Origin: an uncultured Chloroflexia bacterium
Lineage (GTDB): Bacteria > Chloroflexota > Dehalococcoidia > SM23-28-2
Assembly: GCA_963701285.1 (NCBI GenBank)
Contig: OY969584.1
Span: 434,131-498,130 of the forward strand
Length of the DNA stretch: 64,000 nt
Reading direction: 5' to 3'
Shown here: positions 7,446 through 8,337 of the stretch, in pieces
How positions within the stretch are numbered: position 1 is the first letter of the stretch
How the letters are laid out: each line of letters starts with the position of its first letter
Notes under the pieces: generated by a model
The model's database searches: none
Seen by the model: only the letters and a program-made list of their open reading frames with translations
What the model was told of the DNA's origin: nothing
Translations under genes and position numbers: made by a program

Positions 7446-7468
7446 CTACTTGGCTAGAGAGGAACACC

Positions 7469-7894
7469 ATGCCCGATAAGACCATCACCTTCGAAGAGGC
7501 CCTCCAGCGGGCCAAGCGCATGTCCGAGCGCTACGTGGAGCGGGGGCCCTACCGCTTCTTCCCCCAGCCGGAGATCGTCGATGAGGTGCAGGGGGGGCTG
7601 GCCAAGAACCTGGTCGCCCACGGCCACCTGTTCTGCCCCTGAATGACCCTCAGCGGCGATCCCGTGGAGGATCGCAAGAAGATCTGCCCCTGCGAGCGCC
7701 ATCACGAGGACATCGCCCGTGACGGCTACTGCATCTGAATGTTCTTTGTGAGCGAAGAGTTTCTTCGCCGCTACGAGGAGACGGGGGAGGTCACCCCCAG
7801 CACCCTGGGCGAGGTCGCCCCCCTCGGCGAGAGCCTCTTCCCCGCCGGCGCGGAGGCCGAGCGCCTGCCCAAGAGCAAACGCGGGCCCCGCTGA
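7469..7894 (+). CDS. ftrC: Ferredoxin:thioredoxin reductase catalytic subunit-like protein with two in-frame UGA codons (predicted selenoprotein, 141 aa)
   Basis: ATG at 7469 with a GAGAGGA RBS; translates MPDK...GLAKNLVAHGHLFCP-U58-MTLSGDPVEDRKKICPCERHHEDIARDGYCI-U90-MFFVSEEF...; matches the FTR CPC/CPC/CHC triad with TGA at 7640 and 7736; a hairpin follows each TGA. Confidence 0.88.
7656..7675 (+). promoter_or_regulatory. Putative bacterial SECIS element for UGA 7640-7642
   Basis: GCGATCC-CGTGGA-GGATCGC, a perfect 7-bp stem starting 13 nt after the UGA, with GU in the loop. Confidence 0.75.
7752..7768 (+). promoter_or_regulatory. Putative bacterial SECIS element for UGA 7736-7738
   Basis: GCGAAGA-GTT-TCTTCGC, a perfect 7-bp stem starting 13 nt after the UGA, with GU in the loop. 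Confidence 0.75.
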
Positions 7895-7901
7895 GCAACT
7901 G

Positions 7902-7927
7902 GTAGGGGCGCAGCGAGCAGCGCCCCG
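7902..7927. repeat. GTAG-type REP-like palindrome
   Basis: GTAGGGGCGC...GCGCCCCG hairpin directly after the FTR stop codon. Confidence 0.5.
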
Positions 7928-7938
7928 TTGGGCCGCCC

Positions 7939-7979
7939 CAAACACAAACAAAGGCCGCTGAGGGCCTCTCAGCGGCCTT
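7939..7979 (-). terminator. Rho-independent terminator (possibly bidirectional) between the FTR gene and the desulforedoxin-like pair
   Basis: 12-bp stem AAGGCCGCTGAG/CTCAGCGGCCTT followed on the minus strand by TGTTTGTGTTTG. Confidence 0.8.
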
Positions 7980-8001: not shown

Positions 8002-8145
8002 TTAGTCAGCCGAGGGCAGAACCTTGGGCTGGAGCAGCTTCATAGGGGTGCCGCAACAGTTCACACTGCCCTCGCCCGGCTTGATGCACAGCACCTCGGT
8101 GCCGCAGACCTCACACTGGAATCGCTTTCCCAGCTGGTTTGGCAT
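8002..8145 (-). CDS. Desulforedoxin-like small iron/zinc protein (47 aa), absent from the ORF track
   Basis: MPNQLGKRFQCEVCGTEVLCIKPGEGSVNCCGTPMKLLQPKVLPSAD; CxxC...CC as in desulforedoxin; GGAGGTGG RBS. Confidence 0.85.
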   Translation of the reverse strand: MPNQLGKRFQCEVCGTEVLCIKPGEGSVNCCGTPMKLLQPKVLPSAD

Positions 8146-8157
8146 GCTCCACCTCCG

Positions 8158-8277
8158 TCACTGCTTCAGTTGCATGGGCTGATCGCAGCAGGAGAGGTTT
8201 CCTTGTCCGCCCTTGGTGACTATCATCTCCGTGCCACACTTGGTGCACAGATAGCGCTTGCCTGTCTGGTTGGCCAC
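8158..8277 (-). CDS. Desulforedoxin-like small iron/zinc protein (39 aa), absent from the ORF track
   Basis: MANQTGKRYLCTKCGTEMIVTKGGQGNLSCCDQPMQLKQ; CxxC...CC; GTG start with a GAGGAGA RBS. Confidence 0.85.
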   Translation of the reverse strand: MANQTGKRYLCTKCGTEMIVTKGGQGNLSCCDQPMQLKQ

Positions 8278-8337
8278 TCTCCTCACCCTCCGTCGGGCAC
8301 CCGGGCCCCCGATGTGTAGCCCCGCACCGGCCGCCCA

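Follow-up and report, generated by a model that had tools for sequence, protein, structure and literature searches.

Two hairpins in a double-selenocysteine ftrB gene of a Dehalococcoidia bacterium as probable canonical bacterial SECIS elements

Based on conservation among homologues and on synonymous codon usage, the two hairpins that follow the in-frame TGA codons of an ftrB-type gene are very probably canonical bacterial SECIS elements (Table 1; the window is the whole 64,000-nucleotide stretch of contig OY969584.1 analysed here). An earlier note on this DNA had argued that the pair supports real recoding, and this is borne out by the retention of both TGAs in all 160 homologous loci, by frozen synonymous sites in the stems, by the selenocysteine (Sec) machinery that the genome encodes (tRNA-Sec, selA, selB, and selD), and by the match of the product to an NCBIfam double-selenoprotein model (NF041072). 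TGA also occupies both sites in all 34 class genomes above the cut-off of this model, so that double-Sec proteins are the norm in the clade. From the established bacterial pathway, we infer SelB binding and the insertion of Sec, and we likewise infer the chemistry of the cluster and the diselenide. With UGA-58 or UGA-90 occupying the A site, a ribosome would have the hairpin, starting 13 nt further on, at its mRNA entrance; the hairpin would bind SelB carrying Sec-tRNA(Sec), and selenocysteine would be inserted in place of termination. If the roles described in PMC2398784 apply, the Cys left in CPU, CPC, and CIU, four in all, would hold a 4Fe-4S cluster, and the two Sec would take the place of the disulfide pair that is redox-active in ferredoxin:thioredoxin reductase (FTR), giving a diselenide/selenol active site.

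Table 1 Features of the ftrB locus (positions in the window)
Feature	Position	Strand	Basis or remark
Shine-Dalgarno-like GAGAGGA, 6 nt 5' of ATG 7469	7456..7462	+	Sequence reading; putative
ftrB-type gene, 141-residue double selenoprotein	7469..7894	+	Translation with TGA = U; Pfam; NCBIfam; FTR-like structure alignment
Sec codon 1 (U58), second position of first C-x-C motif	7640..7642	+	In frame with ATG 7469
SECIS 1 (probable), arms 7656-7662 (GCGATCC) and 7669-7675 (GGATCGC), loop CGUGGA 7663-7668	7656..7675	+	
Sec codon 2 (U90), second position of third C-x-C motif	7736..7738	+	In frame with ATG 7469
Lower helix (possible) flanking SECIS 2, 7742-7750 with 7772-7780	7742..7780	+	RNAfold structure; weak
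SECIS 2 (probable), arms 7752-7758 (GCGAAGA) and 7762-7768 (TCTTCGC), loop GUU 7759-7761	7752..7768	+	
GC-rich hairpin 10 nt past terminal TGA, outside the recoding signal	7905..7926	+	-15.1 kcal/mol
Inverted repeat between convergent ftrB and desulforedoxin-like genes	7951..7979	.	Sequence reading

Translated with TGA as Sec (U), the ftrB product carries the motif CPU-x14-CPC-x12-CIU, and its true stop is the TGA at 7892–7894. The product scores 218.9 bits against NF041072 (FtrB_double_U, ‘FtrB family double-selenoprotein’; cut-off 160), and the same model run on the genome gives 207.9 bits and reports ‘2 TGA’ at the C-x-U motifs. It also matches Pfam PF02943 (FeThRed_B, the FTR catalytic chain: 1.9e-18, 66.9 bits vs. 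a cut-off of 22), although the His in the CHC part of CPC...CPC...CHC, the cysteine signature of the 4Fe-4S/disulfide site, is replaced by Ile. Two FTR-like chains of known structure (4tpu_A and 7pwe_A) align with the product across CPC...CPC...CxC: PDB 4tpu, an FTR-like ferredoxin:disulfide reductase with a rubredoxin domain (depositors’ name ‘Rubredoxin’), shares the core at residues 9–107 (E = 1e-11), and PDB 7pwe (FTR subunit B) has the CPC...CPC...CxC core in common at residues 35–105 (E = 5.8e-10). Both structures hold Cys at the positions where the ftrB product has Sec, and Cys likewise stands opposite U58 and U90 in the homologues P0013, P0016, and L020–L046.

Each TGA is followed by exactly 13 nt (7643–7655 after TGA1, 7739–7751 after TGA2) and then a perfect 7-bp stem, with the loop G lying 22 nt (7664) and 21 nt (7759) beyond the A of TGA1 and TGA2, respectively, just as first read. 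The shared context TGC-NNC-TGA-ATG is present here (TGC CCC TGA ATG, 7634–7645; TGC ATC TGA ATG, 7730–7741) and its ATG is conserved, but the NNC codon is variable in the homologues (n = 146 sequences; before TGA1: CCT 86, CCC 54; before TGA2: ATA 76, ATC 52, ATT 17). The energy of the bare hairpin is -10.6 kcal/mol for SECIS 1 and -7.7 kcal/mol for SECIS 2, and site 2 reaches -16.2 kcal/mol when the lower helix is included, which is partly kept in the homologues (9/9 pairs in 23 of 123 unique sequences).

Single-sequence folding is weak evidence for the hairpins. The RNAfold check proposed in the earlier note gave z-scores of -0.96, -1.70, and -1.52, none of them significant for this single sequence; SECIS 2 appears in the minimum-energy structure of its piece, and SECIS 1 does not. 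At site 1 the minimum-energy fold contains an alternative helix (positions 5–16 with 22–33), which we rejected: no more than 6 of the 93 unique sequences preserve its full set of 10 pairs, and it is disrupted by synonymous sites that vary freely. Recoding the same peptides with genome codon usage (5000 trials) yielded a stem of at least 7 bp in 5.4% of trials at site 1 and 4.2% at site 2, i.e., a borderline result of 4–5% per site. The chance of two hairpins of this N13/7-bp template in one gene is about 1e-5, given a rate of 3.07 per 1000 (184 of 60,030 TGA trinucleotides). A search of Rfam returned no SECIS match; its five listed matches were far below threshold, a result that is uninformative about SECIS either way.

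Homologous loci were gathered with an alignment query (a single-protein query against the genome contigs found no loci). The hairpins are conserved in UGA-bearing homologues, one of the two points on which the original reading was to stand or fall. Pairing in SECIS 1 is complete (7/7) in 72 of 93 unique sequences, 6/7 in 20, and 5/7 in one; for SECIS 2 it is 7/7 in 108 of 123 unique sequences and 6/7 in the other 15. A mid-stem A.C or C.A mismatch is found in SECIS 1 in 19 of 142 sequences, and an 8-bp variant of this hairpin has the loop GAUG, with A after the G. The conserved core of SECIS 2 comprises 6 bp with the loop AGU(U/A)(U/C), and the RNAalifold consensus is this 6-bp core. When 1106 start/loop combinations across 201 nt were scanned in 146 unique sequences, 6-bp stems shared by more than half of them were confined to +16/17 after TGA1, to +16/17 after TGA2, and to one competing helix at TGA2. 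The loop G is invariant in the unique 50-nt sequences (site 1: position 24 in 84/84; site 2: position 23 in 118/118). When the unique sequences were put to a test for a perfect stem, an energy of -7.5 kcal/mol or lower was reached by 94 of 115 at site 1 and by 102 of 129 at site 2, and the rest fell short.

The end of the gene provides an internal negative control. The terminal stop varies in the homologues (TAG: 86, TAA: 34, TGA: 26), and among the 26 unique terminal-TGA sequences the window alone has a hairpin downstream. The second point, that the hairpins should not be equally present in Cys homologues, also came out in favour: bSECIS-type hairpins follow only 3 of 51 equivalent Cys codons in distant Cys homologues, which are the forms covered by this control, the close forms with Cys at site 1 (P0007, P0012, and P0013) being known here as proteins only. 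In distant forms that carry U, by contrast, a hairpin does lie at this register, as in L018 and L019 for site 1 and in L041 for site 2.

If the hairpins were a by-product of the conserved peptides GDPVEDR and SEEFLR, with no RNA function and with the TGAs read otherwise or the gene broken, the codons of the stems should be as free as those in the rest of the gene. They are not: the pairing synonymous positions are frozen and the same amino acids are free elsewhere in the gene, with a major-codon fraction of 0.96 for nine stem codons vs. 0.71 for 32 conserved codons outside the stems (Mann-Whitney p = 4e-5). The stem codons of SECIS 1 are GGC (97%), GAT (95%), GAG (100%), GAT (92%), and CGC (96%), and in SECIS 2 Ser is AGC in 145/145 and Leu is CTT in 146/146 sequences. 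Outside the stems, Leu at +9 uses six codons (CTT: 7/139), all six Arg codons occur at +57 and +78 (within the stems only CGC or CGT), and Asp is GAC in 68–93% compared to GAT in 92–95% in the stem. The codons CTT, GAT, GAA, and TTT, which are rare, are used exactly at paired positions (genome usage: CTT, 13% of Leu codons; GAT, 33% of Asp codons). In favour of the by-product, recoding with genome usage still yields a stem of at least 6 bp in 9.5% (site 1) and 13.6% (site 2) of trials, public gene callers take these TGAs as W or as stops, and covariation is not significant. With stems that are almost invariant, covariation in the classical sense is absent: 98.0% of the 1988 cells are paired, a double change occurs once, and 52 of 500 shuffles attain the observed score. 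In SECIS 2, the pairs of columns 113/129 and 117/125 are kept in 26 of 26 changes, 25 of them to G-U and the one double change to A-U. The hairpin structure rests on conservation, behind which another RNA or DNA function could in principle stand. However, TGA is a normal stop elsewhere in the genome, and two TGAs retained in every one of the 160 loci are unexpected for a broken gene, so that we regard the by-product explanation as extremely unlikely. A reading of TGA as Trp, as in the public gene callers, is rejected in view of the Sec machinery and of TGA ending genes elsewhere.

The general features of bacterial SECIS elements are those of the bSECISearch model (Zhang and Gladyshev 2005), which as summarised in PMC13188914 comprise an in-frame hairpin immediately 3' of the UGA, a loop of 3–9 nt, an upper stem of 4–16 bp, at least one G at loop positions 1 and 2 (with G or U usually coming next), a UGA-to-loop distance of 16–37 nt, and an energy of -7.5 kcal/mol or lower. 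Both hairpins lie within these ranges, with loops of 6 and 3 nt and stems of 7 bp each (the family-consensus form of SECIS 2: 5-nt loop, 6 bp), loops opening with CGU in SECIS 1 and GUU in SECIS 2, and a distance of 20 nt at both sites (7643–7662, 7739–7758); in energy, SECIS 2 stands at the limit unless the lower helix is counted. In the E. coli fdhF SECIS, there is a bulged U17, the loop has G23 and U24, and the minimal stem-loop lies 11 nt after the UGA. Numbered in the same way (U of UGA = 1), the loop G is G25 at site 1 and G24 at site 2, near G23 of E. coli fdhF. In contrast to that element, the perfect 7-bp FtrB stems have no bulged U, and the sequences are unrelated. The FdhA hairpin of the present genome does resemble it, with a bulged U at 17 followed by G23 and U24.

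The Sec machinery of the genome includes tRNA-Sec at C1:304096-304192, selA (554 bits), selD (366 bits), and selB, whose pieces total about 308 bits. In the assembly, a frameshift at C1:2279133 splits selB; one low-depth 195-nt contig of sequencing run X1 has one base fewer at this point, which is weak support for the frameshift being an assembly error. Runs X2, X3, and X5, which mostly contain relatives with many other letters, had nothing on the frameshift. For the scan for Sec sites, a first coding-potential model was too noisy (525 candidates), and retraining on ORFs with GC3 > GC1 reduced the number to 37. Nine of these are Sec sites (two in ftrB, six of 20 candidates checked with NCBIfam, and one copy of one of these); the rest are 14 checked candidates that proved to be gene junctions, one junction copy, and 13 junction- or terminator-like candidates left out of the NCBIfam check, because of which the genome has at least the selenoprotein genes listed here. 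selD itself carries one TGA, a site missed by the scan and found via the selD search. Hairpins at other Sec sites have a 13-nt spacer, 7-bp stem, and loop CGUGA in a C-GCAxxG-C-C selenoprotein gene, a 14-nt spacer, 5 bp plus a bulge, and loop GUCU in FdhA, an 11-nt spacer, 6 bp, and loop GGUCA in a SaoL-like gene, and a 16-nt spacer in a PrdB-like gene; the SelD and Prx-like genes have no clear hairpin at that register.

The earlier note had gone further and seen in the two hairpins a lineage-specific recoding signal and a template for the other selenoproteins of the organism. In its full form, this would be a SECIS class (N13, 7 bp, GCGA...UCGC) required by the SelB of this organism and marking its other selenoprotein genes. 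The C-GCAxxG-C-C gene shares N13 and a 7-bp stem, the distant FTR-like L041 (U at site 2) combines a 13-nt spacer with a 7-bp stem of other sequence, and loops opening with CGUG occur at three sites (FtrB site 1, the C-GCAxxG-C-C gene, and the PrdB-like gene). Nonetheless, the N13/7-bp geometry is common to only three of the nine Sec sites, GCGA...UCGC arms are confined to the two in ftrB, and the other Sec sites use spacers of 11, 14, and 16 nt. The suggested comparison with fdhA- and selD-type genes turned out unfavourably, as the FdhA hairpin differs in spacer, stem, and loop and selD is without a clear hairpin there; the SaoL-like and PrdB-like hairpins differ too. As a template for finding other selenoproteins the pattern failed: its 184 matches recover three of the nine Sec sites, two of which are its own source, and it is equally frequent after control trinucleotides (3.0–3.9 per 1000 after TGC, TGG, TAG, and TCA). 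Furthermore, both hairpins fit the general bacterial consensus and accompany the gene in all 160 loci, marine SAR202-type records included, and are therefore a property of the gene family, not of one organism. A lineage-specific class is accordingly very unlikely.

At site 2, the functional element could be a switch rather than a simple hairpin: an upstream helix (7741–7748 with 7753–7760) would compete with SECIS 2 for GCGAAGA, and would so time the formation of the SECIS to the arrival of the ribosome or regulate read-through. UCUUCG lies on either side of CGAAGA. The upstream helix is present in 99% of the 146 unique sequences. However, its pairs are all dictated by the peptide M-F-F-V-S-E-E or tolerant of both synonymous codons, and the helix is for this reason without independent support; in addition, the frozen CTT and CGY codons are explained by SECIS 2 only, and the ribosome would melt the upstream helix anyway. 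We consider a switch unlikely. Similarly improbable is the combined idea that Dehalococcoidia SelB prefers a narrow register (N13, 7 bp, (C)GU loop), as seen at both FtrB sites, in the C-GCAxxG-C-C gene, and in the distant L041, and that a switch with three arms (UCUUCG / CGAAGA / UCUUCG) has SECIS 2 as its downstream half. If this were true, the arriving ribosome would have to melt the upstream helix before the SECIS forms, and SelB recruitment would be coupled to where the ribosome stands at the second Sec codon, which lies close to the first.

With both hairpins taken as canonical SECIS elements, the ftrB gene joins a selenoprotein family that is already known, with its two Sec residues and SECIS elements, from print (2008) and from NCBI annotation models. 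Zhang and Gladyshev (2008, PMC2398784) described an FTR selenoprotein from two Global Ocean Sampling reads, with Sec at both redox-active Cys positions and predicted SECIS elements; the family is curated as NF041072 and is listed with two Sec and the motif CxU in PMC13188914 and PMC9312934. Going by the description in PMC2398784, the gene in the window is of the same family, with two Sec and a SECIS-like hairpin after each UGA; unlike the two reads, it is complete, lies in a Dehalococcoidia chromosome that itself looks complete, and has 160 relatives. A literature search for FTR with selenocysteine in Chloroflexi found none. The discovery value is therefore small, and the practical use lies in mis-annotation, method, abundance, and biochemistry. 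Among 16 homologues from a protein search, nine read both TGAs as W and five end at a TGA, so that mis-annotation of the gene is widespread among the protein sets of metagenomes. The approach offers a way to confirm coding-region SECIS elements without covariation, by comparing synonymous codon freedom in the stems with that in the rest of the gene.

Downstream of ftrB, the inverted repeat is likely to be a two-way terminator, judging from its sequence and position (Rfam matches at 7951–7979 are all far below threshold). Whereas the rubredoxin domain is fused in 4tpu, two separate desulforedoxin-like genes adjoin ftrB, and these conserved neighbours are a candidate partner of the predicted diselenide-type FTR-like enzyme.

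Two conserved hairpins stand at the standard distance behind conserved in-frame UGAs, in a genome with a complete Sec pathway and in a gene that belongs to a curated double-selenoprotein family. The protein of this ftrB-type gene, with the motif CPU-x14-CPC-x12-CIU, matched the ferredoxin:thioredoxin reductase catalytic chain (Pfam PF02943, 1.9e-18) and the 'FtrB family double-selenoprotein' (NCBIfam NF041072, 218.9 bits vs a cut-off of 160). The closest solved chains, the FTR-like 4tpu_A and 7pwe_A, differ in having Cys at both positions where the window protein has Sec. The FtrB double-selenoprotein family is already in print and the matter is not new: Zhang and Gladyshev 2008 (PMC2398784) described the FTR selenoprotein, with Sec at the two redox-active Cys positions, and drew bacterial SECIS elements predicted for it in a figure, entries in two reviews (PMC9312934 and PMC13188914) list the family with the motif CxU, and the entry in the later one (PMC13188914) gives two Sec and NF041072.

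Features of the window and of its genome (C1, contig of the window's own genome; unprefixed positions are those of the window)
Feature	Position	Strand	Description
ftrB-type double-selenoprotein gene	7469-7894	+	141 codons in one frame if both internal TGAs are read through
TGA1 (U58)	7640-7642		context TGC-CCC-TGA-ATG, 7634-7645
Hairpin 1 (SECIS 1)	7656-7675	+	GCGATCC/GGATCGC, perfect 7-bp stem, loop CGTGGA
TGA2 (U90)	7736-7738		context TGC-ATC-TGA-ATG, 7730-7741
Hairpin 2 (SECIS 2)	7752-7768	+	GCGAAGA/TCTTCGC, perfect 7-bp stem, loop GTT
Competing helix at site 2	7741-7748 with 7753-7760		UCUUCG/CGAAGA; starts 5 nt after TGA2; vies for SECIS 2 5' arm
Hairpin behind terminal TGA (7892)	7905-7926	+	−15.1 kcal/mol; fits SECIS template
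Desulforedoxin-type genes, tandem pair	8002-8145 and 8158-8286	-	PF06397 profile match; 47 or 42 aa
FdhA, in-frame TGA	C1:316411	-	TIGR01553, 1137.6 bits; spacer 14 nt, stem 5 bp above bulged U, loop GUCU
Prx/BCP-like, in-frame TGA	C1:677959	-	
C-GCAxxG-C-C, in-frame TGA	C1:2510849	+	TIGR01909, 89.8 bits vs cut-off 47.4; spacer 13 nt, stem 7 bp, loop CGUGA
PrdB/GrdB-like, in-frame TGA	C1:2441093	-	scores under cut-offs; spacer 16 nt, stem 7 bp, loop CGUGCU
MerB-like SaoL-type, in-frame TGAs	C1:50235 and C1:1543685	-	two identical copies, 39 bits (weak match); spacer 11 nt, stem 6 bp, loop GGUCA
SelD, in-frame TGA	C1:2543939	+	366 bits
selB (L003/L004)	G000:C1:2278771-2280628		two frames, frameshift near C1:2279133
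Archaellum-type neighbours (L222)	C1:229855-232422		FlaH 225 bits; FlaI motor ATPase 670.5 bits vs cut-off 550

TGA was found at both sites in all 160 homologous loci obtained with the alignment query (80 species-genome and 80 metagenome loci; 158 parsed, with L170 and L179, which has ambiguous letters, read separately). Among 401 evenly sampled genomes of the class, 34 were above the family cut-off and all 34 had the two TGAs, and in one further genome of this sample the gene is divided between two contig ends. When 401 genomes were sampled evenly from the phylum, the window's genome alone passed the cut-off. The true stop codon of the gene varies among the 146 unique sequences (TAG 86, TAA 34, TGA 26). 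In L170 (1501-1926), Tyr replaces the first Cys, a would-be cluster ligand, giving YPU instead of CPU, which may be a sequencing error. Protein sets in public databases misread the family: W stands at both Sec positions in 9 of 16 homologues (P0002-P0017), and 5 of the 16 are fragments ending at a TGA. In two of the fragments (P0007 and P0012), site 1 is Cys and site 2 a stop; therefore, mixed Cys/Sec forms exist.

The features from which the earlier note had argued for recoding, i.e., the two similar TGA contexts, the 13-nt spacers between TGA and stem, the perfect 7-bp stems, and a loop G 22 nt (hairpin 1) or 21 nt (hairpin 2) beyond the TGA, were all read in the window sequence. Judged from that sequence alone, the hairpins are unimpressive. 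RNAfold z-scores for the window sequence were −0.96, −1.70, and −1.52, none of them significant, and at site 1 the fold of lowest energy has a different helix in place of hairpin 1. When the same peptide was recoded with the codon usage of the genome (5000 trials), a stem of ≥7 bp arose in 5.4% (site 1) and 4.2% (site 2) of cases. Genome-wide, 3.07 per 1000 TGA trinucleotides are followed by a hairpin of the template (TGA-N13-stem-(N)GU), and the chance of two within one gene is ~1e-5.

Comparison among homologues gave a clearer signal. Across 1106 start/loop combinations in 201 nt, 6-bp stems were retained in more than half of the 146 unique sequences only at +16/17 after TGA1 (84–86%), at +16/17 after TGA2 (90–100%), and in one competing helix at TGA2. 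All seven pairs were present in 72 of 93 unique sequences for hairpin 1 (six pairs in 20, five in one) and in 108 of 123 for hairpin 2 (six pairs in 15, five in none). Synonymous sites carry the telling evidence for selection on the hairpins: the major-codon fraction averages 0.96 over nine stem codons but 0.71 over the 32 conserved codons that lie beyond the stems (Mann-Whitney p = 4e-5). Codons preferred in the stems are rare in the genome (CTT 13%, GAT 33%, GAA 28%, TTT 14%), and the G of the GAG variant in hairpin 2 still pairs with U. Third positions in the loops are unconstrained (e.g., Pro and Val of hairpin 1), except for the loop G of hairpin 2 (GAG in 146/146).

Codon use inside the stems and elsewhere in the same gene, counted among 146 unique sequences
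Residue	In stems	Outside
Gly	GGC 97%	GGC 58-63%
Asp	GAT 95% and 92%	GAC 93% and 68% (+69, +81)
Glu	hairpin 1 GAG 143/143; hairpin 2 GAA 132, GAG 14	GAG 77-86% (+54, +66)
Arg	hairpin 1 CGC 96%; hairpin 2 CGC 133, CGT 13	all six codons (+57, +78)
Ser	AGC 145/145	four codons (+12)
Leu	CTT 146/146	six codons (+9; CTT 7/139)

Classical covariation was not found in alignment A3, which runs gap-free from TGA1 to 54 nt beyond TGA2 (142 distinct sequences, 150 columns): 98.0% of 1988 cells pair, with a single double change (G-C to A-U in L123), and the covariation score was matched in 52 of 500 shuffles. What speaks for structure is purifying selection on the positions that pair, rather than compensatory change. 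Three loci (L079, L115, and L120; A3 columns 17–36) carry a SECIS 1 variant with GAC and CGG (Glu to Arg), which we read by eye as seven pairs with one bulged A.

The hairpins are kept in UGA-bearing homologues. Among 28 FTR-like genes from more distant members of the family in the phylum, only 3 of the 51 Cys codons at the two sites precede a bSECIS-type hairpin that reaches −7.5 kcal/mol. This control covers distant homologues; close ones with Cys at site 1 (P0007, P0012, and P0013), which would make the sharpest comparison, were represented by their proteins. Four U sites occur among these distant genes: the hairpin of the window recurs at site 1 of L018 and L019 (−7.0 kcal/mol), an unrelated hairpin of 7 bp stands at the same 13-nt spacing behind site 2 of L041 (−11.9 kcal/mol), and site 2 of L044 is followed by a weak hairpin only (−1.6 kcal/mol). 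As an internal control, the hairpin behind the terminal TGA is not conserved, the window alone having one among 26 unique sequences that end in TGA, and read-through there would add ~37 residues that are absent from homologues. A post-TGA hairpin in 67% G+C DNA means little unless it is conserved.

The earlier note had taken the pair for a lineage-specific recoding signal. Real recoding is borne out by the conserved TGAs, the frozen stem codons, and the Sec pathway, but lineage specificity is not, given that the hairpins follow the general consensus and that other Sec sites of the genome differ. The bacterial SECIS consensus, as summarized in one review (PMC13188914), comprises a 3–9 nt loop with at least one G in its first two positions, a 4–16 bp stem, a UGA-to-loop distance of 16–37 nt, and a free energy no higher than −7.5 kcal/mol. 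The two hairpins agree on all four counts, with loops of 6 and 3 nt that start CGU and GUU, 7-bp stems, 20 nt from UGA to loop, and energies of −10.6 and −7.7 kcal/mol (hairpins 1 and 2, respectively).

Of the Sec sites in the genome, the two from FtrB are the only ones with GCGA...UCGC arms, and a CGUG loop start is found at three, FtrB site 1 included. The FdhA arrangement fits the E. coli fdhF numbering (U17, G23, U24). No clear hairpin at the corresponding register was found at the SelD and Prx-like Sec sites; the best SelD candidate has an 8-bp stem and a GUC loop and starts 25 nt after the TGA. As a means of finding other selenoproteins, the template failed: it matched after 184 of 60,030 TGA trinucleotides, equal to the rate after TGC, TGG, TAG, and TCA (3.0–3.9 per 1000), and retrieved three of the nine Sec sites. 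The hairpins were inherited together with the gene in all 160 loci. We conclude that the pair is not specific to a lineage and is of no use as a search template; the hairpins are very probably SECIS elements that belong to the gene family and follow the usual bacterial pattern.

The genome (2.66 Mb, single contig) encodes tRNA-Sec, selA (554 bits), selD, which has its own in-frame TGA, and selB. The selB frameshift is probably an assembly indel; as a weak hint (thin evidence), one 195-nt contig of the public sequencing run X1, otherwise identical, has one base fewer at this very place, so that the two frames would be continuous. In-frame TGAs flanked by coding signal were sought de novo across the genome; the scan gave 37 candidates, and the genes of FdhA, BCP/Prx-like, C-GCAxxG-C-C, PrdB/GrdB-like, and MerB-like SaoL-type selenoproteins were found in this way. 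Twenty candidates were compared with NCBIfam, of which the other 14 were ordinary gene junctions; therefore, TGA normally acts as a stop in this genome, and its use for Sec is both real and selective.

By the established bacterial mechanism, each hairpin would bind SelB with Sec-tRNA(Sec) once its UGA has come to the ribosome, and the spacer of 13 nt would then hold the stem at the mRNA entrance. The competing helix at site 2 was found in 99% of the 146 unique sequences and gains no independent support from this, because the peptide MFFVSEE forces every pair; a ribosome at the UGA would already have melted this upstream helix. The two Sec may form a redox-active pair beside a 4Fe-4S cluster with Cys56, Cys73, Cys75, and Cys88 as putative ligands. 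The two desulforedoxin-type genes (47 and 42 aa) are convergent with ftrB, and because their relatives adjoin the ftrB homologue in 92/160 and 90/160 loci and a rubredoxin domain is fused in 4tpu, the nearest solved FTR-like structure, their proteins are candidate electron partners. Elsewhere in this bacterial genome, the FlaH and FlaI genes score as archaellum-type.
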